Position numbers and translations under genes: made by a program | Shown here: piece by piece, positions 1-38,886 of the stretch | How positions within the stretch are numbered: position 1 is the stretch's first letter | How the letters are laid out: every line of letters starts with the position of its first letter | Assembly: GCA_046563655.1 (NCBI GenBank) | Contig: CM102288.1 | Span: forward strand, 620,001-684,000 | Origin: Yuukianura sp. NJ FZ-2021 | Taxonomy: Eukaryota | DNA length: 64,000 bases | Reading direction: 5' to 3' | Notes under the pieces: generated by a model | Databases searched by the model: none | What the model was told of the DNA's origin: nothing | The model's input: only the letters and a program-made list of their open reading frames with translations

Positions 1-715
1 ATGGTGTTTTGAAAAAACAATATTTTGGAATTTTTTAAATTTCCATAAAAAAGGAAAATGCACTGTAGTGAATTTGTTAGCCTAATCCTGACTTTTTCCA
101 AAAGTCCTTCTGTAGAAAGTTAGAAGGTGTGATGGTGTTTTAAAAAAACAATATTTTGGAATTTTTTAAATTTCCATAAAAAAGGAAAATGCACTGTAGT
201 GAATTTGTTAGCCTAATCCTGACTTTTTCCAAAAGTCCTTCTGTAGAAAGTTAGAAGGTGTGATGGTGTTTTTAAAAATCAATACTTTGGAATTTTTTAA
301 ATTTCCATAAAAAAGGAAAATGCACTGTAGTGAATTTGTTGGCCTAATCCTGACTTTTTCCAAAAGTCCTTCTGTAGAAAGTTAGAAGGTGTGATGGTGT
401 TTTGAAAAAACAATATTTTGGAATTTTTAAATTTCCATAAAAAAGGAAAATGCACTGTAGTGAATTTGTTGGCCTAATCCTGACTTTTTCCAAAAGTCCT
501 TCTGTGGAAAGTTAGAAGGTGTAATGGTGTTTTGAAAAAAACAATATTTTGGAATTTTTTAAATTTCCATAAAAAAGGAAAATGCACTTTAGTGAATTTG
601 TTAGCCTAATCCTGACTTTTTCCAAAAGTCCTTCTGTAGAAAGTTAGAAGGTGTGATGGTGTTTTAAAAAAACAGTGTTTGTTAAGTTTTTAAATTTCCA
701 TAAAGAAGGAAAATA
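1..715. repeat. Tandem satellite, ~131-bp unit, ~5.5 copies visible (probably continues left of the window)
   Basis: Unit ATGGTGTTTT...GAAAGTTAGAAGGTGTG recurs at ~1, 133, 263, 394, 523 and 656 with few substitutions or indels; the last copy is degenerate. Confidence 0.95.
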
Positions 716-851: not shown

Positions 852-1669
852 TTACCTGTCAGAAATGACGTATTGGTGACTGAGTGTTTGCCAGTAGAAG
901 ATGATGCTGACAATACAGATCAACAGAAGTACTGGGATCATGATGAACGTTATGCACATTGCCGGTGCTGTGTTGAATTTGATCCAGCCCAACAGTACTA
1001 CGTCCACAATGAACAGGAATATTGACACTGAGTTGGCCAAAACCTTGAGAAATTACACAAACTTTTCGGCAAATACTTTAATTTTTTTTTAGAATTTGTT
1101 AAATTTTTACCCAAGCTAGGTCAATATAAAAAATGAGAAGATTGTGCGGTGACTGAGCGGCCAACTTGATAGAATTGACCTTCGCAATTGCTTCAATATG
1201 TGGAAGCAGACAAGTACAGATCATTATGGACTGAAATTCGAAAAACATAAAATTTTGAACCCGAATCTCAAAAAATTTCAAAATTTTCCAAAAATCTTAC
1301 CAACAAACAAGCACTGACGAGCAGCGATGTCGTAATTACAAAAGCCGACAGTAGGAACTCATTCGTGTCAGGTTGAATCTGCAGTTCAACCGTCGCTACG
1401 ACCGAGAATCCTGCCATTCTGAAAACCAAAATTTGAAAAAAATTCAAAAATCTGAAGAAAAAAAATTTCAAAATCTTTCTTTCAAAATATCTCCAAAAAT
1501 CTTACAGTGCCGCAATTTCCGTTACACCTTTGAGCTTTGCCTTGCTCAACTGCAGGCGTCTCCAAATCAATTGTTCAGGCTCCGTTTTGTCATCGTCTAA
1601 ATTTTCCACTTCCCGCCCCAATTCGTCCAAAATGTCCAGTCCAATGCCCCTGTCCATGTCCATTTTCAT
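852..1669 (-). CDS. Orai: Orai-family Ca2+ channel paralog A (4 exons visible; 3' end may continue beyond a last intron)
   Basis: GT-AG splicing gives WRRLQLSKAKLKGVTEIAALMAGFSVVATVELQI (TM1), FVITTSLLVSACLLSIMICTCLLPHIE (TM2), SPH..YIDLAWVLANSVSIFLFIVDVVLLGWIKF (TM3), IMIPVLLLI..FYWQTLSHQ (TM4). It ends at ISDR followed by AG|GTAACT, which is either a stop or a splice donor. Confidence 0.9.
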
Positions 1670-2446
1670 CCACTACACTGTCACTTCTACACTAATTGCG
1701 CAGATCCTGATTCTAACTTCTGCGCACCTCCACTTCCATCCTGTTGACCTCCGTGACCTCAGATTTAGATTTCCACTTTAGTAAAATTTCAAAGTCTCAA
1801 AATTCCCCTTGACCACACACTCAAACTCCGTCTTGGCTTTTCTACCAGGAAAAAACTGTAAATTGTCAAAATTGACAAAATAGAGCACGGTTGTGGTTTG
1901 TAGGTTAATTGACCATTAAATTCAAACTAAACTGCGCCTGTACTTAAGAAACAAACAAGACTCAAAATAAATGCAAAGTTTAGCTTAGAAGTTGAGTTCC
2001 GAATGATTCGTTTTAGGTTCCACTTGGACAGGGAGATTTAATTGTGCAGTTCAAGTGGAAAATAAAAGGAAGTTTTTATGTCCAAATTGTAAAAAGTTGA
2101 AGGTTCCCCGTGTGCTCACTTGTCTACACTTACTTTTAGTACTTTAACTTCCCTCAATTGCAGTATAACTTAAAAGTCTATAACCAAGGAGTAAGTCTAT
2201 AGTTATGTAAACTCATAGAATTACATAGTATATGAAAAAAAAGAACGAAAACCTAACCACAACTTAACAATAAAATGTTGTGGCAGTGCTGTTTAAACTC
2301 TCAATTTCAGCAGATCGGGACTTCAAACAGGAAAAATTGCTAAAAATTAGCAATTCAGAATTTAAAATCGTAAAAAGACAGCACTAAGTAAAGTTTAACA
2401 AAAGATTTAAATTTTTTCAAAATTTTAACATAGTGTTATGTTAAGG

Positions 2447-3349
2447 TCACGGCGGGACGTTGACAGTAGAGGCGTCGTCAGAGAGTTTCCGTTTCAGTTG
2501 ACCTTTTGACCTCACACTTCCGGATCGAAGATGCTCCAATGCAAATAAAGTGTCATCTTCAATGTCATCTTCGTTTGAATTACAATAGTCTTGGCCAAAG
2601 AGGCGTTTCTGAAGCAGTTCTCGCCAAAAGCGAATTGCAAAGTAAGCCATTAGGAGAATCGTGGGCGAGATGACGGCAGTTCCAGAAGTAGCCACAATTT
2701 TTGAAACGTTTTGAAATTTGATCCAAACGATCAGCATCATGTTGATGGTGAAGAGTACGACCGTGCCGGTACTGGCCATAAGCCAGGTGACCTCAAAAAA
2801 AAATGTTTAAAAATTTCTAAATTTCAAAATTTTCCAAAATTCTAATTCCTTACTTGTATAATGACCTGATCTAAGCGAGATAAAAAATAGAGCTGGTGGG
2901 ATTTGAACCTAGAAGTGAGTCCAGTTTCGACCAAAACGTTGTCCAGTTCCTCATTGGCTGTCATGAACGGAACAAGTGCTGCTGTGAACAAAATTACAAA
3001 TGCTGCCATAGAAGTTAGCAGAACTGTAGTCACTGAGAAGAGAGTTAGCAGCCAGGGGTCAGCCGTCTCGTGACCTTGGAGGTCAGCCACTGAAGACTAA
3101 AAAGTACAAAAGAGGCAGTTTTCTAAAAGAAGAGTTTTTAGAATAAAATTTTTAAGAATTTTGAAAAGTTACCATGCAGAAACCTCCAATGAGCGCCATG
3201 AGGCGAATGACCCCACTTAACTTTGCCTTGTACAGAGCAAAAGTTGGCTGCCGTGGGTGGACTGGAGGTGGGCCGTCAGGAACCTGAAACTCAAACTGTT
3301 CCGACCCACGTCCCACCGGAACAACGTCCATCCGAATAGAAATGCTCAT
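2447..3349 (-). CDS. Orai: Highly divergent Orai-family paralog B (3 exons: ~3173-3349, 2853-3096, 2447-2791)
   Basis: LYKAKLSGVIRLMALIGGFCM|SSVADLQ (TM1), WLLTLFSVTTVLL..LVP (TM2), W..TVVLFTINMMLIVWIKF (TM3), ISPTILL..FAIRFWRELL (TM4); four-TM spacing as in Orai and position inside the cluster. Confidence 0.8.
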
Positions 3350-3933
3350 CGTTTTCAAAATAAAACACGAAATGTCGACTGTTTTCAAATTGACACTCAC
3401 ACTAAATTCTCGGGGTTGTAACAACAAAAAAATTTGACAAAAATTGCAACTTTTTAGGAATTTTTTTTAGAATGGATTAATTTGGGAGTGTAATCAATTG
3501 ATTGCAAAGCTTTATCAGCTCAACAAAGCACAATTGATTCTGTCAAACTTTGATTTGTTCGCATTTTACAAAAAGAAAAATCGAGTCTGCTAAATATCAT
3601 TTGCAAAAAATTAAATTTTTTGAATTTAGAATTTGGAAAAGACTGCAGCTTTTTAATACAACTGTGTCGCTGTTCATGAGGGCGATTTGCGTTGGCACAA
3701 ATTGCAATTTCAATTTGTACTCTGTACTGTTTAAAAATTAAAAAAAAAAATTAAAAAAATAACCTTTAAAAAAAATATGTTTTCATGCTTCGTAAAACTA
3801 AAAGTAAAAATATAAATAATTTATTGCTCCCGCTAATATTTGTTTCTCCAACTTTAAAAAATAATTTAGTAGATTTTTAAATCTTTTGAGAGAACTAATT
3901 AAACCGTCATTTAAAAATATGGAGCTGCAGTTT

Positions 3934-4825
3934 TTATACATTATGAACAGCGTTACGTGCATACCTGACGGTTGTATTCCCTGAAGAAGCGGAAGCGATA
4001 GATGATGAAGTAGAACTAAGATGTCGGAGTGCCGCTGTCGTTTCAGCGACAGAGTCGTTGCTCATTGCTTGACCTTCACTGGCAAACTCCAGTTGTTCGT
4101 GCATCCTCTCAAGGTCATCGTACTTTTTTGAAAAGACGTTGTACTGATGAGAAACTATTTTCCGGTAAAAGACGATACCAAACACTAAAATGACAATGAG
4201 GACTGGAACCATGATGCACGTCGCAGCGTAGGCAGCGACCATTGAAAAAAATGCAAACTTGATCCAGCACATGAGGATAACGTCGAGTGTAAACAAAAAC
4301 AGCGACACCGTATTGGTCAACACCCAGCAGAGGTCAATTAGTCGAATCATGGAGTCATGGGGAGAAAGTGATACTTGAGACACAAGCGACATCTTGGACA
4401 CTGCACTAATGTGAGGCAGGATGCATGTTCTGCAAATTCAAAAATCTCAATTTTATTTTGACCTTCTGACAATTTTTTGAATTTCTACAGTTGAAATTTT
4501 TGAAAGTTGAGCTTACGAGATCATGACAGCCAGAAGAGAAACTGAAACGAGAAGCGACGTCGTAACTACAAATGCAGTCATCAGAGCGGGGTTGGCGTCT
4601 TCGTCATTGATTTGTAGCTCCACGGTCACAACCTAAAGAACAATTTTTTCAAAATTTTGAATTTTGGTGAATTTTGAATTTTAGGAAACTTACAACGGAG
4701 AATCCTGCAAAGATTTCAGCCATTTCTGCACAATTGGCCAATTTCGATTTACTGAGATGAAGTCGCCGCCATGCCAAGAATTCTGGAGTATTCATTTCAT
4801 CTTTGTTCAAACCATGAAAATCCAT
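3934..4825 (-). CDS. Orai: Orai-family paralog C (3 coding exons: ~4694-4825, 4517-4632, 3934-4429)
   Basis: AWRRLHLSKSKLANCAEMAEIFAGFSV|VVTVELQINDED, TTSLLVSVSLLAVMISTCILPHI, SPHDSMIRLIDLCW..LFTLDVILMCWIKF, IMVPVL..FYRKIVSHQ. The start codon is tentative because a splice acceptor lies just upstream. Confidence 0.92.
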
Positions 4826-5589
4826 TTCAAAACTGAAAAAAAACACTAGTTTAAAAAAAGAAGACACAATTTCACAAAATTTTATCAAAAATTGTAATTT
4901 GAGATGTTTCCAAACCCAGCTGCGTAAACACTTAAAAATTTAGGCTCCACTAATTCCCTCAGAATCCGTACTTCAATTTAGTCAATCGCAATTGAATCGG
5001 TCATTTTTTGTCGAAACTTTTCACTTTTGTGGTTTAGCACTAAATTGTCGCTTGTAAAATTCAGTCTTGAATTCGGTCAAGTTGTGTTTCTTCCGAGAAC
5101 TTGCAAAATATTTACAAAATACGGAACTTTTTTCAGTTTTATCTAATCCCTGGCCTAGAGAACGTCAGTAGCTCAAATCCACTTCTGTTTTCGTCTAACC
5201 TTTTTAGTCACCTAAACTTCAATCTGCACAAGGTTTTGTGTAAATGACTTTTAATACGCCTAATCTCAAACACATTGTTCCCTCAACTGGAGGCTCCAAG
5301 ATAAGCTACCGACGTTAACTACAACACACTTAAACATTTAAACTTAATCTAACTCAATTTCCATTGCAATCACACAAAAAGAAAAAAAACTCAAAATGTC
5401 TTTACAAACTTTAGAAAAAATGGAGGTCAAATGCACAGTTTATAAAGATTTGTAAACATGTAGCTCATCGATCATTTAAAAGTGTCGAAAACATACCAAA
5501 AGTTTGGAAATTTTGGAACTTCGAAAGCACTTTTTACCAAAAATTGCTGCTAAACTACAAACGAAATTTTAGCAAAAGCTCGGGAGATT

Positions 5590-6903
5590 TTAGACGTTGA
5601 TGATTGGCGGATCCAACTGACGCTTCATTTCTTCTAGTTCTTGGCATTTCAAGTCAGAGATCATGTACTGATGGTGCACAATTCTTCGGTAAAAAACGAC
5701 TCCGAACAGACAGACACCGAATAGCACAGATGACAGGAGAACTGAAATTGCAAATTTTACAAAATCCGTTTTTGAAACTTTTTTTTTGAAAGTTTTTTTA
5801 TGTAAGTTACTTGTAGCACACCAACTTGCTACTTCTGAAAAGTAGGTGAACTTGATCCAGCAGAGCAGAATGACATCGAGTGTGAAGAAGAAGATGGACA
5901 AAGTGTTGCCAAGGACCCATGACAGGTCAATGAGGAACATCATGGAGTCATGCGGAGACTCATGTGCTGAGGAATACGGTGCTAACTTGGCCACCGTCTC
6001 AATATGTGGCAGAATACAAGTCTACAAAAAGTTAAAAACAGAACATGTTTAGATGTTAATGATTTTCATGGTTGGCATTTGTTGTACTTTGGGTATACAA
6101 CTTACGGAAATCATCACTGCCAACATGGTCGTGCTGTGGAAAATTCAAATTGAAAACATAAGAGAAACAACATGATTTTAGAATGCCAACATTGAATTTT
6201 ACAAAATTAACTTGCGAAAATGCAAAGCCATGGAGTCCTTTTTACTTACCAAACGAGAAGTGATGTTGTGATTGTAAATGCACACAAGAGGTAAGGATCT
6301 GGATCGTCATTGATTTGCAATTCCACAGTGGCTACCTTGCAATTCCAGAAAAAAATCATAATTTTTCTCAGAAATTGCGAATTTTGAAAAATGCAAATGA
6401 AATTATGTGAGAATTTGAATTTAGTTGGCGACATACCACGGAGAAGCCGGCCATACTGTTTCACATGCACCCAAAAACAAAAAAGTATAAACATAGAACA
6501 AAATTTTGGCGAATTTGAAATTGCAAAAAAACTTACACTGCTGATATTTCAGTGATTCCTTCCAATTTGGCTTTGCTGAGATGAAGGCGTCGCCAAGCTA
6601 AAAACTCCGGCGTGTTCACATCCATTTGCTCCGTGTCTTCAAACTGGAACTTCTGGCTCTAAAAAACGCAAAGTTAATTAAAACTTAAACTAATTAAAAA
6701 CCATAAAGTGAATATTTGAATGTTCATACCGGTGCCGGGAGTTCTTCGAGCTGAAATGTCACCGAACCACAGTGGGGACTTTCGTCTGCAATACTCCATG
6801 ACACCGATCGTGGCTCCGAAGCTACCCGGGTAGCGACATTCGTCGGACTTGTCGGGGGACTCGGATTTGGCGACATTGACGGAAGACTCTGCGATGGTCG
6901 CAT
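5590..6903 (-). CDS. Orai: Orai-family paralog D, copy 1 (7 exons including 19-nt and 28-nt micro-exons)
   Basis: Pro/Ser-rich N-terminus MRPSQSLPSMSPNP; AWRRLHLSKAKLEGITEISAV|MAGFSV|VATVELQINDD; TTSLLVC|TTMLAVMIS|TCILPHIE; ESPHDSM..FTLDVILLCWIKF; FYRRIVHHQ..ELEEMKRQLD. All junctions are GT-AG and phase-compatible. Confidence 0.93.
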
Positions 6904-7355
6904 GATGTCACCCTTCCTAATAATGCTCTGACACAAACTAAGAACTGCGAAAAATTCAGATACTCTCACTCAGTCAAACTTGCAAAAAACTTTTCGCATA
7001 ATGAAGAACTCTGCGTACCTCGAAAATTAGAGTTCGAATTTAGTTAATTTATGAAAATGAAATTAGAAAACAAGATCATGTGCGAAAAAGAATGACAGAA
7101 GACGAAAGTAAACACATTCGCTTGACAGGAGATTTTGCAAGAAGCAACTATTCTGCATCACAACTTTTGTTACAACACAGAATTAATTTTAAGTCAATCT
7201 TAACTTACATTCGTTTTGTCAACATTTAATAAACAAGAGCGGACAGATTTAAAAGTAAAATTAATAAAAGACTAGAAGCATGGTTTCGAAAAATTATCAC
7301 TTTAAAATTCTTACTTCACTAAAAATTAACGTCAAATAAATTACTTCATTTAGCC

Positions 7356-8883
7356 TTATTCACTCAACGGAAAAAAATAGTTTTGTTCAAAAATTCCTTC
7401 CCCACTGACTCCACCGCTGTAAGTAACGTTGTAGTTGTAAATGAGATGCTGCGATTCATCTTCGTAGGATCCAAAAGTATGACGACTCTTCCGAGCTAAA
7501 GACAAATCAAAAACAAATCTAGTAAAGTAAATGCAAAATTTCAGTTTTATCCCATACGAATTTGTAGAAATTTACCTTGGTTGACCAAAAACTGTGCAAA
7601 ATATTGGCCGATGAGGACAGCTTCACTTGTATGCGGAATGTTTTTCTTCCAGCTCCACTCGTACATGTTCTTCTCAGGGTGGAATTGGATTCCAAAGAAT
7701 GGATACTTTTTAGATTCTATGCTGGATACAAACAGAGGCTCAAGAGAGTCATTGGACCATGACAAAACGTTGTACTGCTCTTCTATTGCACTGTGCTGTT
7801 TTAGTGTGTCCTTGGTTACACAAAAGTGATGAAAATTCGATGCTAATGGTTGGTTAGCCAGCAGCTTCAGAACGGTCGCTGGAGCGCGCTTGAACAGTTC
7901 ACTGTATTTCGCCACTAAAAGTCACATCAAAACCGGTCACTTATTAAACAAATGTTTTCCAGGTCAATCAATTACGTTTTCAGTTTTTCAAAGACATCCA
8001 CTGTAGACTTACACTGTGTAAACTGTAAAGTGGTGCTGATGTTGTAGGAGTTGCAATTGGCCAGTACTTCTGTTCCTAGAACTTCGTAGATCAAGTACTC
8101 GAAGCCAAGACATGTTCCCCAGACGGGGAAGTGATCTCCGTTGTCATTGGCTTCTCGGGCAAGAGTCATCAAGTACTTGGCAGCACTCGCATATCCAGAT
8201 TCATTGAAATAAACTCCTCCCCCGGGCAGAAGTAACCTAAACAGAGGAATCAATGTATTTTCACTATAAGTTTTCTGGTTTCACTATTTAGCACAATCAC
8301 CCATTGATTCCTTGAAATATTTGATCGTAATATTCCCGCGTCTGATTAATCCTGTAGTAATTCCAGGTTCAAAAATTAGATTCAATTAAAACTTCTTAAT
8401 TTTGTTTCAATTTTACTCACTTTACGGGCACGACTCTGCCACCACCTCCTTCCACAAATTTAACATAGGATGCTGCAATATACGAAAGTGAGGGTTCGTT
8501 GACCTTGACCTTCCCGTCATTGTGGTACTCCTGAGCCAGTATTCCTGAAAAAAAAAATCAAACGGTTATCACTATTGTGAAATTGTGATCAATTCCATCA
8601 CTTTTTAAAAGATTCAATTTTGACAAACAGCTGATTTTTCCCACACTAAAAAGAAACTTTTTTTTGCTACTAACTAACCGATAATAGGTCGGTCATTCCA
8701 AAAGCCTCCTGCTTCTGCTGAAGCAAGTTCAAGGTCAGCGTCTTGCGAAGTAACAGTGTAAATGAAGGCAATACCAATTGCCAAACTAAAAATTACTACA
8801 AATGTCAGTGCCAAAAGTGCTAAGAATCTGAAAGAACAAAGAACGTTGTCCTCGTCCTCACGCTGAATTCTGTCTACTTCCAT
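7356..8883 (-). CDS. GGH: Gamma-glutamyl hydrolase (peptidase C26), copy 1, with N-terminal hydrophobic segment
   Basis: NDRPIIGILAQE, SYIAASYVKFVEGGGGRVVP, LLLPGGG, FPVWGTCLGFE (catalytic Cys), NFHHFC, YPFFGIQFHPEK (catalytic His), LIYNY; 6 exons. Confidence 0.93.
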
Positions 8884-9544
8884 TATGTCCAACCAATTGC
8901 TCCAAGTAAATTGACCCCGAACTTTGACTTTTCTCCAAAGGTTGAAGGATTTTCATTTTCAAAAAACTTGGTTTAAAAAATCAACCAGAACGTCAAAAGG
9001 TTACAGTTTCTAAAGAAAATGTAAACCCGATGAGAATAGGAAATTAAAATCTCTACAGAGATTTTTAGAGCTAAAAATGCCTCCCCTCCCCATTCCCCAC
9101 CCACTATCAGTAGATTATACTGCCAAAATATAAAGGCGATGAATCAATAATCTCTGCAGTATGGCTTTGGATGAGCGCTTTTTGCACAGATTCGCAATTC
9201 GCACATTTGAGCGTCAAAAATGACTCAAATCCAACAGCGAATTGTCTAATCTAATCAAGACCTTTGACCTTATTTAGTAGTGAAAGCCAGATCCTGATAA
9301 GAATTTCACAAAAAAATTTAAGCAAACTGCTGTTTTCATTATTTCGGCAAACGTTTATGAATTATTAGCAAAAATATCTTCAAGAGTTGGATTGAAATTA
9401 TTGAAACTTGCTAGAGAAATTACTTATGTATTATGGAATCTATGAAATAAATCAAAAGTTAACTTACTACGACGTTTTGTTCCAGTAGGAGAAAATCTTG
9501 AAAATTGAAAGTCGATGTTTCTTCGTGATCTTTGTAAAGATATC

Positions 9545-11514: not shown

Positions 11515-13662
11515 TTAAGTTCTTTTCAGATTTACCCTAAACGATAAATAAACTCCTGGCTCTGTTTTTGGCATATTTGGAAAGTTGGCACTCCATTTGT
11601 ACCAGAATTTGTAAGCCCGGGGTGATGGTGGTGGTCCGTTCATACTATTTTCCGGCGGCTCGCTTCTTCTAAACGTTCGAATCTAAATACAATCATAATA
11701 CTTGACTATAACTCAACGGAATGAAATGACGATTCGGGCACGATAGAGAGAGTGAGACAGAAAACTGCGAGTTGAATTTACCGCGCTAGCTATCGCAGAA
11801 TTTCGAATTACTCGAATTGACGAGAGGAGCATTTCTGGATCTGGGTTGATGTTAACGATCATAGAAATCCGACTTGCACTGGTGAGGTAGCTTTGAATGA
11901 GTCTGGTAAGCTTGCTGTCGCGATACGGAATAATGTCTACCTTTGAGCCATTTTGTTTCTCTCTAGAGAACGTAAATTGAAAAATGAATATTAGGTTCAC
12001 TAATTGAAATTAAACCAGATGAAGCCATTAGCACTTACCTTAAAGCACGAATGCACCGGAGCAAGACAATGAGTGACTGATTGATCGTTCCAGATTCTTT
12101 GAGGCGAGCTCCTATGTTACCTGTTTGTGAAGTGCGTTCTAGTCCAGCAAGATCACAAAATGAAAACCTGGTTGATACAAACGTTTCCTTTCATACTGAT
12201 TTATGTTACCTATACCTCTTACTGCATGCTTCATGATGTAAATTCTAAGCTTGTGCGAGTAAAGTGACTTACCGACGAACTTCTTTTGGATAGATATGAG
12301 ATCCAACTTTCCCAATAACAACCATACGGATATTGAAGAACGAATGTGATCTGCTTGAGTTTGAGTTTACATTTGTTGAAGCAAACTGTAGATTCTGTTT
12401 CCCAGCTAGGAAAAACTGATAAGCCTCTTCTGCATTATTGACACAGCACTCCGTCAGATCTGTAGAAGAAGAAACGTGTGAGTGTCATTAGTAGGTTCCA
12501 TGAATTCTGGATATACAATTTGCGTTTTTTTAAATTACCTTTTATGTAAACGTGGCCATTTTTGTCTTGCAATATCTTCAGCTCCCGACGACGAGTTTTG
12601 CCTCGTGTTACAGTATCGAATAGGTCGTAGACTCTTTCATTATAAACTTCAGCAAACGAAACCCAGATGGAGTATAGCATTGACTTGTCCGGTAGCGACA
12701 TAAGGGACTCCTCCTCGGTTCCGGTGGACGAATTTGTTGAAAAGATCGGGTGACTTGCGGACCCTGATGAGCAGACCGAAGATGACGAGGAGCGCAGAAT
12801 GGAGTCGACAAATGATGACATGTCACTTGGTTTCTAAATAATAATCACCAACATTATATCTATAAACGTGAAAATATTTAACAAAAAATAATCAAAGTAC
12901 AGTGTCTTTACAATTTTAGCATCTCGCAACACTCTGTGTCTGGTCTCCGCATTAATTTTCTGCATATTTTTGTCGCATACGATGTAACTGTCGAATTGAT
13001 ACGGCTTGATATCCCCCTTTCGGTAAAGACTCTCATCTACTCGAGTGAACAGTTGCTCCAGCGTTCTTGGAATGATTCCAAAGTCCTTTCCGTATCCTGC
13101 AGGAAATAAAATGTGTACTTTTTCTGCTCGAAGCCTTCTGCATTCGTATTCAACATGCTCAGCAGCAGATTGTGCGCTCTGAATAGCATATCGGTTACCT
13201 TGCATTGTGTAGGTTTTGCCAGAGTTAGTTGTACCGTAACCAAAAATCAAACCATTGTCGCCTTCCAGAAAACCAGTGACAATGCCACGGGCACATTCAT
13301 CATAAACCTCTGCCTGGGTTGCTCCTGGACCGAAAGCTCGTGAGTAAGTAAATGTCGATTCCCTTCTATCAGGCAACATCAGCTTATTCGGTGGTCTGAC
13401 AAGAAGCGTCTTTTCGTCCAACAGGAAGAAGGCCTAAGGCAGAGATAACTAACTTTAATTACAAGTGATGAATTCGGTATATGAACAACTTAGATAATCT
13501 GGTTACCTCTTCAAACACGGTTTTCTGGTTAACTCCGCGTCCTGTTGGACGAAGTCGAAGATATGTCTTGATGTGTTCTGTGCCATTATCCCCAGCAAAC
13601 TCAGCAGATTCATCAGACAATCCATTCATAACACGTCGATCATCTTCAATTACGTCAGCCAT
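11515..13662 (-). CDS. Kinesin-6 (KIF20/MKLP2/subito-like) motor-domain protein, apparently without stalk or tail
   Basis: HIKTYLRLRP, GYGTTNSGKTYTMQG (P-loop), long loop-6 insertion typical of kinesin-6, WVSFAEVYNERVYDL, NSNSSRSH (switch I), FCDLAGLER (switch II), IPYRDSKLTRL. The 3' end is uncertain. Confidence 0.85.
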
Positions 13663-19000: not shown

Positions 19001-22000
19001 TGGAATTCGAAATTTTGAAAGATACTTGCATGAGAGGTTTGTGACAGGAGACGATGAAGTCTGGTTTGGAATTTTTGTAGATAAGTTTGGAAGTTGTTTG
19101 GAGCCATTTCCACTGGCCGTCTTTGCTCTGGAGGCGGTAGGCAATGAGACAAGACCTACCGGTTTTTAGTACTAAAATTCAAAAAACAAAATTAAATTTT
19201 GAAAATTCCTCATTTTTTGAAATTTCATGTTCCGTTTTACATTCTTGATGAGCAGAGGCCACATAAGCAAGGTCATCAAAATGGACTAGGTCATAACCAC
19301 CCATGTTGGTCAACTCTGCATCTGAGTAGCCCAGGAGCATCTTCCCTCTGTCAAATTCAAAATCTACATTTTCAAAATTTACTTTTTCAAAATTTTGACC
19401 TGTGATCCATGGAGAGAATGCCGAGATCAAGTTTGTGTTTGCTGTTGATTGTGACTTCTTTTTGCGGCGTTTCCAGCATTGTCGGTGGACCAAACGGCGT
19501 ACAAAGTGCAAATAACGCCATTGGCCCTTCGCCTGACTTCCGATTTTGGCCGTGCAGAATTCTCACCCGTCCACGAATGTCCAGTCTCTAAAAAACCAAA
19601 ATCCAATTTTCAAAATTTGTCAAAAAATAGAAATTTTCCACTTTTTTTCAAATTACAGAATTTATAAGGTTTAGGTTTAAGCGAAAGTTGGACATTGAGA
19701 TAAGAAAAATCAATGCCAGAATTGATTATTCTCCCCTAAAACTCTCTCTCTTTCTCTCGCTATGAGAAAAATTAGAAAGGAAAATAGTTACTCCCTCCAC
19801 TTCTGAGAAAATCCATGTTCAACTAATCTAAAAATCTTTAAATCTCTACCTACCTTTTGGAAAGAGAAAACATTAAAACATTTTATCCACAAATTTATAT
19901 TATTCTACTCTCTTTTTAATCTAAAATGGAAATCTATACGAAACAAAAAGGTTCTCCTTTTATTCCGAAAACTAAAAGGCTCCTTTCCGTAAACCATAAA
20001 ACAATGTAGTAAATTCTCCATTTCCTATGCAACTAAAAAGCAGTCATAAAAACTTGGAAACTTTCTCCCCAATTTGCAAAACCAAGAAAAAACACTTTTT
20101 AGTTGTTCAAAGAAAAATCGGTTTCGTTAAAAAAATCGGTTTTGTGAAAAATCGCTCACATATTTGGACTCCTTTCATCTACAAAAGAAAAGATTTTAGA
20201 TGGATTTGGTTCACTTTTTTTGTGTGTGGCACAGTGAAGTAACAATGACTTGCCGTCTAACTGTCGAGGTCAAAGGTCAAAGGTCAATTGGCTTACCAGG
20301 AACCCCGACGTATTGTCCAGGAGACATCTAAATCTGACTGTGAATGACCTCTCGAGGAAATTAGCGTGCTCTGGAGTGTGAATTGCTTCTGGCAAGGTCA
20401 TTCCGGACAATTCCGAAGGCAGAAATGCATTCCACATCAATTGCCGCTGCAACTCTTCACGATCTTCCGAGTGCACCATTTCCCAAATAGACTGATGAAC
20501 AATGTCGGACTGTAAAAATTAAAAAGCGGGAAAATTTGAAAACGCGGGCAATTTGTTTTCAATTTGTGCCAGAATTGCAGAAAACTAGAAAGTTTTGAGA
20601 AAAAATCATGTATTGTTTAAAAAAAAAGTTCTTGTGGATTTTATGCTTGTTGTGGTGAAAGTGATTAGTAAATTTGAGACAGTTGATGATTGTATTTTGG
20701 TTTGACATGCAAGAAGTGTTTGTGCGTTTGTGACCTCCCGTGACCTGCCTCAACGTAAAGTTAAACAATGAATGGAAAAAGTGAGGTTGATTTGATTTGT
20801 GCATGGAATAATGCGTGTTAACACGCCTTACGTCCTTCACAATTTACTCATGTCCACATGCAAGTTCAATAAGAAAACGATGTCTCACGTTCACTAACCA
20901 CGCATAACACGTTACGTTTTTACACAATTTTAAAACAATTTTAAAAAACTAGGCAATTTTTTAAGATTTTTCAACTCCTGGAGCAAGATTTCTCAAAAAG
21001 TTTCAGATTTTGTGTAATTTTTCGCAGAAACTGCTTAAGTTTGACCTTCACTATAAAAGTCAAGGTCAAAAGTTAAAATTTTACTTTTGAGTTTGAGTTT
21101 TTTTTTACATGTGAAGACATTTTTTGTTTTGCGTTTTGAAAACACAAAATTGAAAACTCTTTTTTGAAAAAAAAATTGAAGTTGAGAATGTGGGCGAAAA
21201 TTAGTCTCATTAATCATGTTTCTGTTTTGGGCTTGCCGTCTGTTCTGAGCATTTGAAATTCAAACGTTCCTTAAATACTTTTTGATTGTTTCACAAACTT
21301 CGCCCACTTTTTCAAAGCTTTTTTTAAATTCTAAAAAATGCTTTTTAGAACAAATCGTTAGCCCAGGAGGAGGCCTTTCATTGTTGAAAAGGAGAATTCA
21401 AAAGCGAGACTTTATTAAGACATATTTCACACAAGGGGGTCGCGATATGTGCCTGGTGTCATCATAAATTCAATTCTCATAAGTGTCAAAACAACTTTTT
21501 CAAAAAACGGACTTCAAAATTTTGAAAACCAAGTTTACGAAATTTTGGAATCATCTTTTGAAGACAGCAGTTACCTGATGCATTCCTAGGTAGCACTCGA
21601 TGTTGTGAGTGGTGAAAAAAAGTTCTCCGTCGTCGCAGCTTATCATCAGCAAAAATCCATTAAGAGCCTGCAAAGAAAAAATTACAGAAAAAAAGTTTTA
21701 GATGAAAAATTTAGCACAAAAAATGTAAAACAGGATTTTTTTTGGCGAAAACCGTTTTTTCACAAAATTTATGACTTTGGCCTATTTTTGCCCGTTTCCG
21801 TCCCATTTTCTGTGCTGTTTTTCTCTTTCCAAAACCTTTCACAAGTTATCAGATTTAGGATTTCAAAATTTAGCCTCCGTAAAAATCCGAAAAATTTTGT
21901 GTTCCAAGTCTACTTTTCAAAACCGTTTTTTCTGGAGAGTTAAGTCATAACTTTTTTGAAATTTTGGTTCATGCTGATTTGAGAATCATAACTTCGCTGT

Positions 22001-25396: not shown

Positions 25397-28193
25397 TGCA
25401 AAAAAAAAAATTCAAAAATTTTAAAATTTAAAAAATTTTTGAACTAGGTGTGCGTGGCTAACCATACGCTTTTATTTCAAAAACGAACCAAAAATTTTGA
25501 TACTAATTCTTTATGTTTTTTTTTTTGTTTGAGAGAATTCTGATGGCGGAGGCATGAATTCCCTTTGGATTGGTTGTTATTTTGTTTTTGTTGAAGACAA
25601 AAGAAAATTGGTATAAAAATTACATATGTTGGGATGAACAAAAGGAAAAAATGGAAGAAGTAAACTCGTTTCGCTTGGAGAGAATGGGAGGAAATTATAC
25701 GTTCAGTTCCCTTGTTCCTATCGACAGTTTCTTAACAATTTCTGAAACTCTTTCACAAAAAACACAAACCATCATTATCTTCCTCCATCACTTTTTTTTT
25801 GTTCTAAAAATCAAGGCTACAATCAAAGTTTTAGTCTCTCAAACTCTAATCCAAAATTACTTCCATAGTCTCACAACTAAAAAAACCAAAAGAGTGTTCT
25901 GATTTTTCAAAATTTTGGGGAAAAAAAACATCAGAAGAAGTTAAAAATCATTTTTTTGGAAGAAAATTTCAAAATTTTCTGAGTAGTTTTTGAACAATTG
26001 AGTTGGAATTTGGGATGTGAAAATAAGAGTGAAATGTGAAAAGAGAGCCGCACCCTGTGTGCCATGATCCTTAATCTAGAATCGATGAGAAATAAATTGA
26101 GTCCATAAGGTAAAAGCATACGTTAGGCTAGCGTCGTTAGGTTGTGCCAGTAGGCACGTGTAGCCTTTAAGGTTTTCGTTAGGTTAGTTGGGTTAGTGTT
26201 TTTGTATCTCGCTTTCTCCCCTCCGAACATTAAGGAGTAATTAAGAATAGAAAGAGAGGATTGACAAAGGGCCCAGCGACGCCTTCATGTTATTCCAACT
26301 CCCCCATAGTGCTTTCTCCACAAGACGCCTAGCCTAACCAACCTAACTGTTAGCCTAACCAAACCTATTTTCAGCCTGACATGAGTTTCAACCCAGGTAG
26401 ATTTCCGATTTCCCTGGGAAAAGACCCGGGAGAAGGCCAAAACTCCCGGGACACACGCCGCTTATCAACTCATTCCACATAAACGATCTACCCTTTCTCT
26501 CTCAACATGTCGTAGTTAGGTTGTTAGCCTAACAAAATCCAATAACCTAACAAATCCTAACATTTCCAACCTAAATTCTACGACATAAGGGTAGTTTTCT
26601 ACCTGTGAGTTTCGTGGACTTGTCAATCCCTTGATCCCCCTTCAACTCCTGCTATGTAGAATATTAACTCTTTGAGTCCAAATGAACCGAAAAAAGTAAG
26701 AGTAAAACCGAATTCGGGGAAAAGCGGACTTAGTCACTTCCAGTTTTAGTTTTTGTGAACGTGGTTCGCCTACGGGGGTGAATAAATCAAGGGAGTTATG
26801 TTGATTTGTGTTATTTGACAAGTAAGGGAGGAGGGTTAATCTTTTGACTCTGTTAAATTCTGCTTTTACTTATTTTGGACTCAGCTTAAGCTCTAAACTT
26901 GAGTCAATAAATTTCAAAACACTTGACAGGTCAGGTCACTTCCATCCAGGAGCTGCAAATAGGCTTAACAACTTACAACCAATCAGCTTCCACAAAAAAA
27001 CTCAATTTTCAAAACATAAACATAAAATAAAAAGCAGATTTTCAAAAAAAAAAAGCCTCAAGAAATTTAATCACGAAAATACCGTATTTCACGGCGTATA
27101 ACGCGCGCTGAAATACTATGATTCCTGGAAAATATAAATTAAAAAAAAATTTTTTTGCAGAGAGTTTGAATAGTTCCTCCAGCTTCAACTTTGGTGCTAA
27201 CTGCTTAGTGTATGTTGTTAGCGCTAGCGGTAGCTTCATTTTTTGAAACTAAAGTTCGTGATAGCGTGATGTTGAGTATTTGGTTGCCGAAGGTGTTGAC
27301 GGCGTGTCTTTCAAATATTTCCCAGCACGACTTCAGCCAAATACGAAACTCAATTCATTCCCGTTTTAGTACCAAAAGTAGAGAGCTTCTTAATTCAACT
27401 TTGACCTCATGAACTTACGCATGCAAACTCCATCTCAAAACCTGTTGAAATTCAGTCAATACTTTTCAAAATTTGGAATTTCCCGTTTTTCTATTCCAAT
27501 TTTTCGGCGCAGACTGTTCCTTCTCGGTGGTACAATTTATCGGAGCAGCCTGTTGTCAAATTAAATCGTCCAATTGAAAAAGTAAAGAGATAGGTCATGC
27601 TGTGCTGTCAATTGTTTAGTTTTATTAAAGTAAAAACTGAGTTCCTGTCTTAAAACTGGAGAAATTTGTAGACTGAAGTAAAAAGTTGATTTAAAGCGGG
27701 AGTAATTTTCGCATGTCTTTTTCTCTTTTAAAGCTGAGTGCGGAATCGTTTTGTAATTGTGAATAAAATATAGTTTTGTGTTGGTAGTGTGTAAATCGAC
27801 GAGTTGTCTTTCGTTGTTGCTTAATTACAGGTTACACACCTCTCATTATACTTCACTCTTCTTCCACTTTGTGAACCACAATCAATTCGTCTTCAAGCAA
27901 AAGTAGGAGAGAGCGACCAAGATACCATGAACACCAACGTATTTTTACAAAAATTGAATTTTTTTAAACTCATTTTGGAACTAATTTCTCATGATCTTCT
28001 TTAGAACTCAAGTGGAACAACGAGGAACTGAAAATCCAAGGTGTTTAAACGGATTTTCTAAAATGGAATTTGAAAAGTTGATCCAGAATGACTCAAGGTC
28101 TGTCATTTTAAAAGCTTGAGATTTAGATTGAGTTTTTGTTTTAAAAAGTTAAGCTTAAGTTGTCACTGTAAGTTACAAAAATGGGGAGCTGTT

Positions 28194-29542
28194 TTAGACG
28201 TTGATGATTGGCGGATCCAACTGACGCTTCATTTCTTCCAGTTCTTGACATTTCAAGTCAGAGATCATGTACTGATGATGGACAATTCTTCGGTAAAAAA
28301 CGACTCCAAAGAGACACACACCGAATAGCACCGAGGATAAAAGAACTGAAATTGCAATTTTAAAAAATCCGTTTTTGAAACTTTTTTTTGAAAGTTTTTT
28401 TTTATGGAAGTTACTTGTAGCGCACAAACTTGCTACTTCTGAAAAGTACGTAAACTTGATCCAGCAGAGCAGAATGACATCGAGTGTGAAGAAGAAGATG
28501 GACAAAGTGTTACCGAGGACCCATGACAGGTCAATGAGGAACATCATGGAGTCATGCGGAGACTCATGTGCTGAGGAATACGGTGCTAACTTGGCCACCG
28601 TCTCAATATGTGGCAGAATACAAGTCTACCAAAAGTTAAAAACAGAACATGTTTAGATGTTAATGATTTTCATGGTGGCATTTGTTGTAGTTTGGGTATA
28701 AAACTTACGGAAATCATCACTGCCAACATGGTCGTGCTGTGGAAAATTCAAATTAAAAAAAAGGAGAAACAACATGATTGTAGAATACCAACATTTACAA
28801 AATTAACTTGCGAAAATGCAAAGCCATGGATTACTTTTTACTTACCAAACGAGGAGTGAAGTTGTGATTGTAAATGCACACAAGAGGTAAGGATCTGGAT
28901 CGTCATTGATTTGCAATTCCACAGTGGCTACCTTGCAATTCCAGAAAGAAATCATAATTTTTTAGAAAAATTGTGAATTTTGAAAAACGCAAATGAAATT
29001 ATCTGAGAATTTGAATTTAGTTGACGACATACCACGGAGAAGCCGGCCATACTGTTACACATGCACCAAAAAAAGAGTATAAACATCAATTTTGCATGAA
29101 CAAAATTTTGGCGAATTTGAAATTGCAAAAAAAACTTACACTGCTGATATTTCAGTGATTCCTTCCAATTTGGCTTTGCTGAGATGAAGGCGTCGCCAAG
29201 CTAAAAACTCCGGCGTATTCACATCCATTTGCTCCGTGTCTTCAAACTGACATTTTTGGCTCTAAAACACACACAGCTAGTTAAAAGTTAAACTAGTTAA
29301 ATTGAAATTAGTTAAAAAAAGTTTAATTTGTTAAAAACTATACAGTTCACACATTGGAATGTTAATACCGGTTCCGGGAGTTCTTCGAGCTGAAATGTCA
29401 CTGAACCGCAGTGGGGACTTTGGTCTGCAATACTCCATGACACCGATCGTGGGTCCGAAGCTACCCGGGTAGCGACATTCGTCGGACTTGTCGGGGGACT
29501 CGGATTTGGCGACATTGACGGAAGACTTTGCGATGGTCGCAT
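28194..29542 (-). CDS. Orai: Orai-family paralog D, copy 2 (intact, same exon structure)
   Basis: Same splice sites and micro-exons as copy 1. The protein is nearly identical (e.g. W>L in ASWCAT, F>C in SQKFQ) despite many synonymous differences. Confidence 0.92.
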
Positions 29543-29986
29543 GCTGTCACCCTTCCTAATAATGCTGACACAAACTGAGAACTGCAAAAAATTCAGATAC
29601 TCTCATTCAGTCAAACTTGCAAAAAAGTTTTCGCACAATGAATGTAACAGAACTCTGCGTATCTCGAAATAGTTAATTTATGAAAATGAAATTAGAAAAC
29701 AAGATCATGTGCGAAAAGAATATGACAGAAGATGATACCAAACGCTTTTGCTTGACACTGACACATTTAGGAAGGAAGCATTCTGTATCACAACTTTTGT
29801 TACAACACAGAATTAATTTTAAGTCAATCTTAACTTACATTCGTTTTGTCAACATTTAATAAACAAGAGCGGACAGATTTAAAAGTAAAATTAACAAAAG
29901 ACTAGAAACATGGTTTCGAAGAATTAGCACTTTAAAATTCTTACTACACTAAAAATTAACGTCCAATAAATTAAGTTAGCTCAGCG

Positions 29987-32833
29987 TTATTCACTCAACG
30001 GAAAAAAATAGTTTTGTTCAAAAATTCCTCCCCCACTGACTCCACCGCTGTAAGTAACGTTGTAGTTGTAAATGAGATGCTGCGATTCATCTTCGTAGGA
30101 TCCAAAAGTATGACGACTCTTCCGAGCTACAAATCAAAAACATATCTAGTAAAGTAAATGCAAAATTTCAGTTTTTATGTAAATCTAATTAGAATTTGTA
30201 GAAATTTACCTTGATTGACCAAAAACTGTGCAAAATATTGACCAATCAGGACAGCTTCACTTGTATGTGGAATGTTTTTCTTCCAGCTCCACTCGTACAT
30301 GTTCTTCTCAGGGTGGAATTGGATTCCAAAGAATGGATACTTTTTAGATTCTATGCTGGATACAAAGAGAGGCTCAAGAGAGTCATTGGACCATGACAAA
30401 ACGTTGTACTGCTCTTCTATTGCACTGTGCTGTTTTAGTGTGTCCTTGGTTACACAAAAGTGATGGAAATTCGATGCTAATGGTTGGCTAGCCAGCAGCT
30501 TCAGAACGGTCGCTGGAGCGCGTTTGAACAGTTCACTGTATTTTGCCACTAAAAATAACATCAAAACCGGTCACTTGTTATTAAGAAAAATATTTTCCAG
30601 GTCAATCAATTTGGTTTTAGTTCCAATGCTCCCATCTGAGATATTCAAATTAACTTACACTGTGTAAACTGTAAAGTGGTGCTGATGTTGTAGGAGTTGC
30701 AACTGGCAAGCACTTCTGATCCAACAACTTCGTAGATCAAGTACTCGAAGCCAAGACATGTTCCCCAAACGGGGAAGTGATCTCCGTTGTCATTGGCTTC
30801 TCGGGCAAGAGTCATCAAGTACTTGGCTGCAGTCGCATACCGTATTTTCCCAAATAGTACACCTGGTGTACTAATTTTGTTTTCGACTTCTGGGGGTGGT
30901 GTACTATTAGGGACCTGGTGTATTATTAGAGACGGTGTACTAATTAATTTTTTAAGAATGAGGATTTTATTCTTAACTAAAACGTTCAGGAATCAGGAGA
31001 AAATAATTTCTAAATTACTAAAAACTACTCCACTTCGATTTCAGAATCCGTATCCACAGTGTCCAACAATGAATCCCAGGCAATCTTCACCCATTTAGTC
31101 ATCAATTTCTTGGATGGAGCCTTAAAAATTAAGAATTTATATAAATTCTATTTAAAAAGAAACCTACGAAATTATTAGTTATGATTTACCTTCAAATACC
31201 TTACGCTGGCGTACGACTTTACTTATAAATGTAGCCAAATCAGCAACTTTCGAAAACAATTGATCCGGTTCCTTTTGTCCTACTGTAGTCCTCCGTCTTA
31301 ATGATAATGAGTGTCTTTTGAGAAAACGATTCAGCCAGCCCAAACATGCGACGAACTTCGTTCTGTTTCCGTTATCCAATGTTGGGAAAATTCTCTTCGC
31401 CTGCTCTTGAATCGAACGCCGTGAGACCCTTAACGATTTGTTTCGTTGTTCCATAATCCAGTAAAAGAGTGAATCATCCAACTCAGGTATCAATCGTTTC
31501 CGTCCACCGCCGATCAACCTTTTGTGTTTGATCTTGGACGATTTCACGTTTGACACTGTAAACAAAATACTGTTTCAGTATGAATGTAATAATGAGGAAA
31601 AATTTTTTTATTCACAATAATTACTCACCTAAAGCATTTTCCTTTCTAATCCATGTCCGAATACTCTGTCGATCAATGTTGCATTCTTTAGCTGCTGCAG
31701 AACTTGATTTATCCTTGGCCAATTTCAATACTTTCAATTTGAACTCCAGGTCAAATGATCTTTTTTTGTTGGGAGACATTTTAAGTAAGAATACGAATGT
31801 TAAGTAAAACAATTTGGAGAGAAGTAACGTGGAGATAAACACAACAAATGAAGAGCTATAATATTACTAGCTCAACTACCTTCTCCGGGTGTTATACTCC
31901 TAATGCTACATTACCAAATACCCTGGTGTACTATTAGAGACCTGGTGTACTATTTGGGACGGTGTACTAATTAATTTTTCGGCCCCTGGACCTGGTGTAC
32001 TATTAGGGACCTGGTGTACTATTTAGGTATGGTGTACTATTAGGGAAAATACGGTATCCAGATTCGTTGAAATAAACTCCTCCCCCGGGCAAAAGTAACC
32101 TAAAAAGGGGAATCGATGTTTTTTATTAGATTCACTAAAAAATTTCAAGTTTCACTATTTAGCGCAATTACCCATTGATTCCTTGAAATATTTGATCGTA
32201 GTATTCCAGCGTCTGATTAATCCTGTAGTAATTCCAGGTTCAAAAATTAGATTCAATTAAAACTTCTTAATTTTATTGCAATTTTACTCACTTTATAGGC
32301 ACGACTCTTCCACCACCTCCCTCCACAAATTTAACATAGGATGCCGCAATATACGAAAGTGGTGGTTCGTTGGCCTTGACCTTCCCGTCATTGTGGTACT
32401 CCTGAGCCAGTATTCCTGAAAAAAAAAATGAAACGGTTATCACTATTGTGAAATTGTGATCAATTCAATCACTTTTTAAAAGATTCAATTTTGACAAACA
32501 GCTGATTCTTCTCACACTGTAAAGAAAAAGAAACTTTTTTTTTGCTACTAACTTACCGATAATAGGTCGGTCATTCCAAAACCCTCCTGCTTCTGCTGAC
32601 ACAAGTTCAAGGTCAGCGTCTTGCGAAGTAACAGTGTAAATGAAGGCAATACCAATTGCCAAACTAAAAATGACTACAAATGTCAGTGCCAAAAGTGCTA
32701 AGAATCTGAAGGAACAAAGAACATTGTCCTCCTCCCGATGAATTCTCTGTCTACTTCCATTATGTCCAACCAATTGCTCCAAGTAAATTGACCCTGAACT
32801 TTGATTTTTCTCCAAAGGTTGAAGGATTTTCAT
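29987..32833 (-). pseudogene. GGH: GGH copy 2, interrupted in a coding exon by a 1.2-kb pogo-type element
   Basis: Same exons as copy 1; the exon encoding LPGGGVYFNESGY/ATAAKYL is split at the Tyr codon by the element at 30840-32054. Confidence 0.88.
30840..32054 (-). mobile_element. Internally deleted pogo-family DNA transposon (Brinker-like HTH + CENP-B HTH retained, DDE core missing)
   Basis: 24-bp TIR CCGTATTTTCCCWAATAGTACACC; TA TSD (30838-39 and 32055-56); the empty site is visible in duplication copy 1 near 8192. Subterminal GGTGTACTA repeats; ORF MSPNKKRSFDLEFKLKVL..IRTW / GGGRKR..LDDSLFYWIMEQRNK..FVACLGWLNRFLKRHSLSLRRRTT. Confidence 0.95.
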
Positions 32834-33406
32834 TTTCAAAAAACTTGGTTTAAAAAATCAACCAGAACGTCAAAAGGTTACAGTTCCTAAAGAAAAATGT
32901 AAACCCGATGAGAAAAGGAAATTAAAATCTCTAGAGAGATTTTTAGAGCTAAAAACGCCTCCCCTCCCCATTCCCCACCCACTATCAGTAGATTGTACTG
33001 CCAAAATATAAAGGCGATGAATCAATAATCTCTGCAGTATGGCTTTGGATGAGCACTTTTTGCACAGATTCGCAATTTGCACATTTGAGCGTCAAAAATG
33101 ACTCAAATCCAACAGCGAATTGTCTAATCTAATCATGACCTTTGGCCTTATTTAGTAGTGAAAGCCAGATCCTGATAAGAATTTCACAAAAAAAATTTAA
33201 GCAAACTGCTGTTTTCATTATTTCGGCAAAAGTTTATGAATTATTAGCAAAAATATCTTCAAGAGTTGGATTGAAATTATAGAAACTTGCTAGAGAAATT
33301 ACTTAAATTAGATACGAATTAATTAATGCACAAAAACGAAAAATATAGCTTACTGTTTTTCCGGGGAACATGAGCATAACTTTGTTAAGATTTCATTACG
33401 ATGTGA

Positions 33407-38573: not shown

Positions 38574-38886
38574 TACTGCGGTAGACAATATTTACTACTA
38601 TTTTATTTTTAAGACTTATTTTTAAGACTTAGCGAGCCGCTCGCTCTCAACAATTAGACTCTGAAAATATTAAAGTGAACATGACGTAATTGGCCCAATT
38701 GATTCGGAGTCTTTGTCAACGTTTTGATGTTTCTGTAAGTGTGATTTCATCCTGTCCGGGATTCCTGCATGTCTCCAATCACACAACTTCGAATTTGCCC
38801 AGTTCAAGGTCAAAATCGTTCCAAATCGGATCTCTGACTCGTGGCATTTCAATAACAGCCAGTTAAAACAACAGAAAGAAAAGCTA

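Follow-up and report, generated by a model that had tools for sequence, protein, structure and literature searches.

A tandem cluster of Orai genes without the H134 brake falls within a divergent springtail clade of the Orai family

The DNA analysed here is a 64,000-nt stretch of Yuukianura sp. NJ FZ-2021 (assembly GCA_046563655.1, contig CM102288.1, positions 620,001 to 684,000 of the forward strand), hereafter the window. The DNA is eukaryotic, has a G+C content of about 37% and short GT-AG introns, and carries between positions 852 and 6903 four different spliced genes for Orai, the calcium release-activated calcium (CRAC) channel family, lying head to tail on the minus strand and transcribed in the order D, C, B, A (Table 1). 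An initial annotation made from the sequence alone had proposed four different Orai paralogs within 6 kb, and this is borne out by Pfam matches and by in-frame spliced models. Six of the eight minus-strand exon open reading frames (ORFs) of this interval match the Pfam family Orai-1 (PF07856), the E values lying between 1.3e-19 and 1.2e-05; for the remaining pair, 2842-3096 and 6246-6548, the Pfam scan gave no family match. Against a curated cut-off of 25 bits, the profile scores are 71 bits for C (E 1.3e-19), 53.3 for D, 41.5 for the last exon of B (E 1.5e-10) and 29.9 and 25.5 for two exons of A, so that A to D are all members of the family; a fifth gene, D', is 98% identical to D (5 of 263 residues differ). 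The coding sequences were built by hand on the basis of GT-AG sites, reading frames and collinearity with relatives, and GT..AG boundaries are present at 13 of 13 introns in A to D and at 6 of 6 in D'. A tblastn search of the whole window with the four models found no Orai-like sequence beyond these five loci.

Table 1. Orai genes and other features of the 64-kb window, with the residue at the position equivalent to human H134 and its codon (aa, amino acids).
Feature	Position	Strand	H134-equivalent (codon)	Details
Orai gene A (A-type)	852..1669	-	Cys (1309-1307)	exons 1669-1506, 1418-1301, 1230-1111, 1043-852; 197 aa
Orai gene B (B-type, most divergent)	2447..3349	-	Ala (3006-3004)	exons 3349-3173, 3096-2854, 2791-2447; 254 aa
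Orai gene C (C-type)	3934..4825	-	Ser (4539-4537)	exons 4825-4694, 4632-4517, 4429-3934; 247 aa
Orai gene D (D-type)	5590..6903	-	Thr (6129-6127)	seven exons: 6903-6730, 6658-6537, 6455-6437 (19-nt microexon), 6335-6250, 6133-6106, 6021-5811, 5741-5590; 263 aa
Orai gene D' (recent duplicate of D)	28194..29542	-	Thr (28732-28730)	seven exons as D; 263 aa
Segmental duplication, copy 1	5588..9426			carries D and the glutamine-amidotransferase/peptidase-C26-like gene
Segmental duplication, copy 2	28192..33305			carries D'; insertion at ~30.8-32.05 kb encodes a Tc5/pogo DNA-binding domain
Tandem repeat	1..714			unit ~131 bp, ~5.4 copies, ~95% identity
Glutamine-amidotransferase class-I/peptidase C26-like exons	7547..7921 and 30175..30570	-		gamma-glutamyl-hydrolase-like; upstream of D and D'
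HTH_Tnp_Tc5 ORF	31179..31574			within a 1.2-kb insertion (30839-32055)
Tc5/pogo-type remains	37093..38104			DDE_1 (E 1.6e-45) and HTH_Tnp_Tc5 pair
Tandem array	38883..39837			unit ~35 bp, ~95% identity
ORF of 1102 aa	43763..47071	-		uninterrupted; no Pfam match
ORF of 438 aa	47763..49079	-		no Pfam match
ORF of 335 aa	49161..50168	-		no Pfam match
Kinesin motor exons	12435..13433
PAS-domain exon	19179..19562
PHD-finger exon	51078..51689
Class-I (Trp/Tyr) tRNA-synthetase exon	56557..57069

The predicted proteins of A to D differ from one another at diagnostic positions, numbered here as in human Orai1. Gene A has Glu at the R91 and Val at the M101 equivalent and retains E106. Its 3' end is unsure because the stop after 'ISDR' overlaps a possible GT donor; no 3' exon was found in 1-851, either by three-frame reading or by tblastn with the tails of five A-type relatives, and such an exon may be located past the edge of the window, or the gene may really be short. 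Positions 1-851 consist mostly of a tandem repeat directly downstream of gene A, and the array could sit in an intron or in the 3' region of that gene. Gene B has Asp at E106 (3084-3082) and Ser at V102 (3096-3094) and keeps R91, M101 and F99; it is without W76, the SPH motif and a recognisable C-terminal heptad, and its loop between transmembrane helices 2 and 3 (TM2-TM3) is longer. Gene C, which may have an additional upstream exon, has Glu at the R91 equivalent and a C-terminal helix with the L276 equivalent. Gene D has Glu at both R91 and K87 and Ser at P245 (5730-5728), and its protein is collinear with the D-type proteins of Allacma, Folsomia and Orchesella dallaii. Gene D' likewise has Ser at the P245 equivalent (28334-28332). 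The initial annotation had counted a fifth Orai copy at 28.2-29.5 kb; an intact Orai gene does lie there, but instead of a further paralog it is a duplicate of D inside a segmental duplication whose two copies share 90-94% DNA identity in a self-blastn comparison.

The feature common to the five genes is the absence of His at the H134 position. The four TM2 strings read earlier were recovered letter for letter from the spliced models, and in an alignment of 318 rows (313 database proteins and the five window models) to the family profile the equivalent position holds Cys, Ala, Ser, Thr and Thr in A, B, C, D and D', as the initial annotation had held for the first four. The Drosophila protein dOrai, whose H206 is the equivalent of human H134 (PMC7825772), gives the same register by HMMER, the residues opposite H206 being Ser for the C exon, Cys for the A exon and Thr for the Allacma D-type protein P0009. 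The Ala of gene B was assigned from the profile and MAFFT alignments, its TM1-TM2 exon by itself being too diverged to give an Orai match against the PDB. In gene D the register of the Thr is independent of the upstream splice site, since it shares a 28-nt exon with the downstream portion of the conserved motif. The high conservation of H134 elsewhere, also claimed earlier, is confirmed: outside the springtail clade described below, 263 of 267 rows have His at this column, the exceptions being three Asn and one Tyr, and every row with Ser, Thr, Cys or Ala falls in one group. Within that group His is absent from 26 of 26 tree-placed members other than the window genes, and from 37 of 37 when fragments are included, 11 of the 37 being fragments assigned to the clade partly by their H134 state itself. 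The 13 genes of 11 Orai-bearing loci, which in part repeat the protein set and are no independent sample, all have Thr, Ser or Ala at this position. The four rows outside the clade that depart from His (P0031, P0133 and P0155 with Asn, P0141 with Tyr) lie on long branches.

The relatives were drawn from a profile search of 1.84 billion representatives, with 686 matches of which the best 150 were listed, and from two word-seeded searches with 120 matches listed each. Among the matches listed, the nearest database proteins of the window genes are springtail proteins, with a best identity of about 70%. A FastTree tree separates the clade from the remaining Orai proteins with a support of 100 (17 versus 102 rows). 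The same split is recovered by an IQ-TREE quick search (31 versus 60 rows) with a Shimodaira-Hasegawa-like approximate likelihood ratio (SH-aLRT) support of 100, on a branch of 1.47 changes per column; this set comprised 91 of the 318 rows, namely the clade members in which 150 or more columns are filled and 60 canonical rows that we picked to span the FastTree tree and named taxa. All nine named members are Collembola of two orders (three from Allacma fusca, one from Orchesella cincta, three from O. dallaii and two from Folsomia candida), and the window genes nest inside this clade, each type in its own paralog group. The window thus very probably belongs to a springtail that is absent from the annotated proteins. 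An expanded Orai subfamily without the H134 brake was rightly recognised by the initial annotation, which had placed it in the lineage of the window; the expansion is real and separate from canonical Orai, and it is wider and older than that, being springtail-wide, with at least five paralog groups. Where the clade attaches to the rest of the Orai tree is less clear. Constraining it to group with canonical springtail Orai raised the log-likelihood by 12.0 over the free quick tree (approximately unbiased test, p-AU 0.79), and a control constraint with four deuterostome-like rows was also better (by 7.0, p-AU 0.735). Because both constraints score higher, the attachment is not fixed and the free quick tree is not optimal.

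In at least one springtail the clade exists beside a canonical Orai. In O. dallaii, protein P0310 has Lys at R91 together with S93, S97, M101, V102, E106 and H134, and groups with P0300 as sister to insect Orai proteins; the same species has three clade members. The genes without His therefore represent an added subfamily and not the only Orai of the lineage, and the statement that invertebrate models have a single Orai does not extend to springtails, where one species has at least four Orai genes. In public annotation the clade proteins and canonical Orai alike are named 'calcium release-activated calcium channel protein 1'. A literature search on Orai in Collembola, springtails or Folsomia, and on invertebrate Orai/STIM paralog phylogeny, found no relevant paper among titles and abstract beginnings.

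Some further observations concern the aligned set itself. The high-scoring protein P0163 of Gryllus bimaculatus (475 aa) was rejected as a clade member, because it carries two canonical His-bearing domains one after the other, of which the one is partial and the other complete. Either the annotator joined a tandem duplicate into a single protein or the fusion is real. A set of canonical His-bearing rows has Thr at R91 (17 of 227) and Tyr at C143 (P0027, P0029-P0030, P0032, P0034-P0041, P0043, P0044, P0124 and others). The uninterrupted full-length relatives P0001, P0007, P0012 and P0167, from contigs of 0.9-1.3 kb, resemble spliced transcripts and would be consistent with such an origin.

How old is the subfamily? 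In the IQ-TREE quick tree, in which several groupings have support below 95, gene A groups with P0169, P0167 and the Allacma protein P0166 (support 95), gene B with P0110 and P0135 (support 98, long branches), gene C with P0001, Folsomia P0161 and O. dallaii P0162, and D and D' with O. dallaii P0159, Folsomia P0158 and Allacma P0009. None of the window genes belongs to a fifth group, the E type (O. cincta P0008, O. dallaii P0160). Allacma is not of the same order as Orchesella and Folsomia, and both Symphypleona and Entomobryomorpha occur in the C group as well as in the D group, so that the duplications are older than the split of these orders. The tandem order is also found elsewhere. A metagenome contig of a related organism (L004) carries a C-type gene followed, 0.18 kb further on the same strand, by a B-type gene, and another contig (L002) carries a D/E-type gene followed by a C-type gene; together they show that the D-C-B order of the window recurs. 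Two other loci, L012 and L013, gave no Orai match at E <= 1e-4. In the B-type ortholog of L004, E106 is Glu and H134 is replaced by Thr. That ortholog (L004:2287-2847) lacks the second intron of gene B (2792-2853), its frame running through the site, which indicates gain or loss of an intron.

The substitution pattern indicates that these genes are kept by selection. Between D and D' there are 26 synonymous and 5 non-synonymous changes, corresponding to a synonymous rate (dS) of 0.159, a non-synonymous rate (dN) of 0.0083 and a ratio (omega) of 0.05, and the dN/dS check proposed in the initial annotation thus comes out far from neutral. The Ser codon at the P245 equivalent has itself undergone a synonymous change between the two copies, with the residue retained. 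Compared with the L004 ortholog over tblastn-aligned codons, C is identical at 194 of 243 aligned residues, with proportions of non-synonymous (pN) and synonymous (pS) differences of 0.137 and 0.745, and B at 153 of 241, with pN 0.261 and pS 0.818; synonymous sites are saturated in both comparisons, so that omega is unreliable for C and is not given for B. Gene B evolves about twice as fast as C, yet far from neutrally, and the subfamily is under purifying selection. It is very improbable, then, that the copies are decaying or neutrally evolving duplicates without function, although B lies on a very long branch (end branch 3.92), the filter residue of B-type sequences varies, and A may be truncated at its 3' end. 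Five open frames with canonical splice sites, the omega of D and D', pN values far below a saturated pS for C and B, and relatives of each paralog type in other species have already largely refuted the idea of decay.

Which positions are changed, and which are kept? The following counts compare clade members other than the window genes with the other Orai rows, with denominators that vary by position. At the inner pore, R91 is replaced by Glu (18) or Gln (3) in all 21 clade members, against Lys in 135, Arg in 57 and Glu in a single one of 227 other rows; K87 is Ser in 12 and Lys in 5 of 21 (Lys in 222 of 227 elsewhere), and reads K, S, A, E and E in A, B, C, D and D'. Along TM1, S93 is Ala in 20 of 21 (Ser in 226 of 227 elsewhere), L96 is Met in 17 of 21, S97 is Ala in 19 of 21, M101 is Val in 16 of 19 (Met in 212 of 234 elsewhere), M104 is Thr in 25 of 29 and V107 is Leu in 34 of 35. 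Further along, L138 is Ile or Val (32/38), E173 is Asp (33/39), V181 is Thr or Ser (37/39), E190 is Asp (36/38), F250 is Ile, Leu or Val (35/36) and K265 is Gln (29/33). Other positions are kept: W76 (18/21), L81 (16/21), S82 (18/21) and K85 (21/21) in the N-terminal region; G98 (19/21), F99 (21/21), V102 (23/29) and E106 (34/35) in the pore; and L130 (36/36), W176 (38/39), F187 (39/39), P245 (33/36), H264 (24/33) and L276 (29/29) elsewhere. At P245, D and D' have Ser and O. dallaii P0159 has Phe. In the window, A, C, D and D' carry G98, F99, V102 and E106 together with E91 and V101, and thus lack the canonical pair of a basic R91 and Met101, both of which B keeps; among B-type sequences the filter residue is Asp, Glu or Asn.

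By their predicted proteins, the window genes are clear members of the Orai family that as a group depart from three canonical CRAC-type features, His134, basic R91 and Met101. The alignment shows that the predicted pore core (the E106 filter, the F99/V102 hydrophobic gate and F187) is retained, and that the predicted non-pore face of TM1 and the TM2/TM3 ring packing on it are rebuilt as a block. This block comprises S93A, L96M, S97A, M101V, M104T, H134 to Ser, Thr, Cys or Ala, L138 to Ile or Val, V181 to Thr or Ser and F250 to Ile, Leu or Val, plus R91E at the inner pore.

Published mutants bear on how such channels might be gated. Human Orai1 becomes constitutively active with H134A/C/S/T, as the initial annotation had correctly stated, and also with V102A/C/G/S/T, V181A/C/S or any change of P245, and H134 is viewed either as a steric brake or as a hydrogen-bond partner of S93 and S97 (PMC7825772). 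The equivalent His-to-Ala change opens hOrai2, hOrai3 and dOrai (bioRxiv 10.1101/2021.10.26.465861). On the other side, M101G/A/S/T/C/V/L/I abolish STIM1 gating and M101L attenuates the H134S current (PMC7679135). A possible though less likely interpretation, in line with that of the initial annotation, is that the subfamily forms constitutively open or store-independent Ca2+ channels, controlled by expression level, trafficking, pH, lipid, ligand or heteromer composition, with the store-operated role remaining with canonical Orai. His134 is found in no clade member, the residues that replace it are those that open human Orai1, V181 has become Thr or Ser in nearly all members and P245 is Ser in D and D', B-type proteins are without W76 and the C-terminal heptad, and the parallel canonical Orai of O. 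dallaii would free the paralogs for a new role. However, the co-occurring M101V is a loss-of-function change in human Orai1, A, C and D types alike retain the L276 Leu of the heptad and the nexus His across a deep split, and a permanently open Ca2+-selective channel would be costly to the cell, yet the genes are strongly constrained. It is an even more tentative idea that springtails possess a second, STIM-independent class of highly Ca2+-selective channels, without the CRAC brake and latch, whose activity would be set by subunit mix, expression or trafficking. If so, the A to E types would mix, with B as a filter- and gate-altered subunit, a role in standing epithelial Ca2+ uptake like that of vertebrate TRPV5/6 would be conceivable, and they would provide the first constitutively active Orai channels of natural origin.

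The clade combines single states that open the human channel with one that shuts it, in proteins where the TM1 partners of H134 are also replaced, so that single-mutant phenotypes are not transferable. It is safest to regard the whole TM1-TM2/3 interface as re-engineered and the resting state as not deducible from single mutants. Beyond this, we favour, with a probability of about 0.5, the view that the products of the five genes are functional subunits of an old and divergent Orai subfamily, so far known only from springtails, which would form STIM-coupled hexamers with a shifted set point. The subfamily would have been born by duplication, with the D-C-B-A tandem order as its trace, and would be maintained by purifying selection alongside a canonical His-bearing Orai. 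As neither the steric brake (H134) nor the Met latch (M101) is left, opening and closing would presumably proceed with different energetics. The A, C and D types would most likely still be Ca2+-selective hexamers, possibly mixed, that couple to STIM or to a similar cytosolic partner, and the shifted set point could mean easier opening or some basal activity. We prefer STIM-type coupling for these three types because they have retained the complete pore signature, L81/S82/K85, the nexus His and, at L276, the Leu of the C-terminal heptad across the deep split. The B type, set apart by the loss of W76 and of the C-terminal heptad and by variable filter and gate residues (E106D, V102S), would more likely be a store-independent or modulatory subunit.

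Several observations weigh against STIM-coupled hexamers. L273 is not kept as Leu, the position reading Tyr in 18, Cys in 4, Val in 3, Phe in 2, Leu in 2 and His in 1 of 30 clade members; C, D and D' combine the L276-equivalent Leu with Tyr or Cys at the L273 equivalent, and in the models of A and B the C-terminal helix was not found. A-type relatives run on into that helix, and the gene A model stops before it. The constitutive activity of H134A in human Orai1 likewise needs K85 and the remaining N-terminal region (PMC7825772), so that the conservation of K85 is not specific evidence for STIM coupling. Finally, several states found in the clade (Ser, Thr, Ala or Cys at H134, Ser at V181 and the P245 changes of D, D' and P0159) are gain-of-function in human Orai1, in favour of the interpretation as open channels.

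The differences between paralog types also bring in another explanation, namely that the paralogs are mainly modulatory and, in mixed hexamers with canonical Orai or with each other, would tune store-operated entry without forming independent channels. The tandem order kept over three genomes or contigs would allow co-regulation, the pore residues differ by type, as at K87 and in the E106D and V102S of B, and TM1, which makes the subunit contacts round the pore, keeps G98 and F99. We nevertheless regard this explanation as unlikely, since tandem duplication leaves tandem order anyway and the A, C and D types carry a complete pore signature and could work alone.

The remainder of the window contains unrelated genes and repeats (Table 1). 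Together with D, the segmental duplication copied the glutamine-amidotransferase/peptidase-C26-like gene, which has a Pfam match at 7547-7921. Copy 2 is broken by the insertion that holds the HTH_Tnp_Tc5 ORF, and further Tc5/pogo-type remains lie at 37.1-38.1 kb. The ~35-bp tandem array gives long spurious ORFs on both strands. The 1102-aa ORF lies in the most G+C-rich part of the window, which is also AT-skewed, and the 438-aa and 335-aa ORFs follow close by at higher coordinates. Exons for a kinesin motor, a PAS domain, a PHD finger and a class-I tRNA synthetase make up the other recognised genes. No STIM-like sequence was seen among the 24 long window ORFs scanned against Pfam.

Why should these genes matter beyond springtails? 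Knowledge of Orai gating comes almost entirely from point mutants of human and fly channels, in work that treats H134 and M101 as conserved checkpoints. A long-lived subfamily without H134, M101 and a basic R91, yet with the filter and the hydrophobic gate, would be a natural test case for the generality of the steric-brake and sulfur-aromatic-latch models, and could reveal another way of gating a CRAC-type pore. In any case, springtails break the rule that an invertebrate genome has one Orai.

Compared with known systems, the springtail proteins belong to the same Pfam family as canonical Orai (dOrai, PDB 4HKR; human Orai1-3) and have the same collinear four-helix layout, the Allacma D-type protein aligning with dOrai over 190 residues (E 3e-50). 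They share with canonical Orai the E106 filter, the G98/F99/V102 gate, F187, W176, L81/S82/K85, the nexus His and, at L276, the Leu of the C-terminal heptad. They differ from it in lacking His134 throughout, in having Glu or Gln instead of Lys or Arg at R91, in the near-fixed changes S93A, S97A, M101V, M104T, E173D, E190D and K265Q, L138 to Ile or Val, V181 to Thr or Ser and F250 to Ile, Leu or Val, and in forming a separate clade on its long branch. Insects are generally held to have one Orai; unlike them, springtails have several paralog types per genome. At the brake position the springtail proteins carry the same residue classes as the engineered mutants Orai1 H134A/C/S/T and dOrai H206A (PDB 6BBF, 7KR5), and the H206A mutant chain is the top PDB match for both the Allacma protein and the window A exon. 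These mutants, however, change one residue in a canonical background, whereas the springtail proteins also replace the S93 and S97 partners and the M101 latch. Vertebrate Orai1, Orai2 and Orai3 are likewise a lineage-specific expansion into paralogs able to mix in hexamers, but, as read from the literature and from deuterostome-like rows of the alignment, they all keep His134, M101, P245 and a basic R91, whereas the springtail expansion is independent and alters these very positions.

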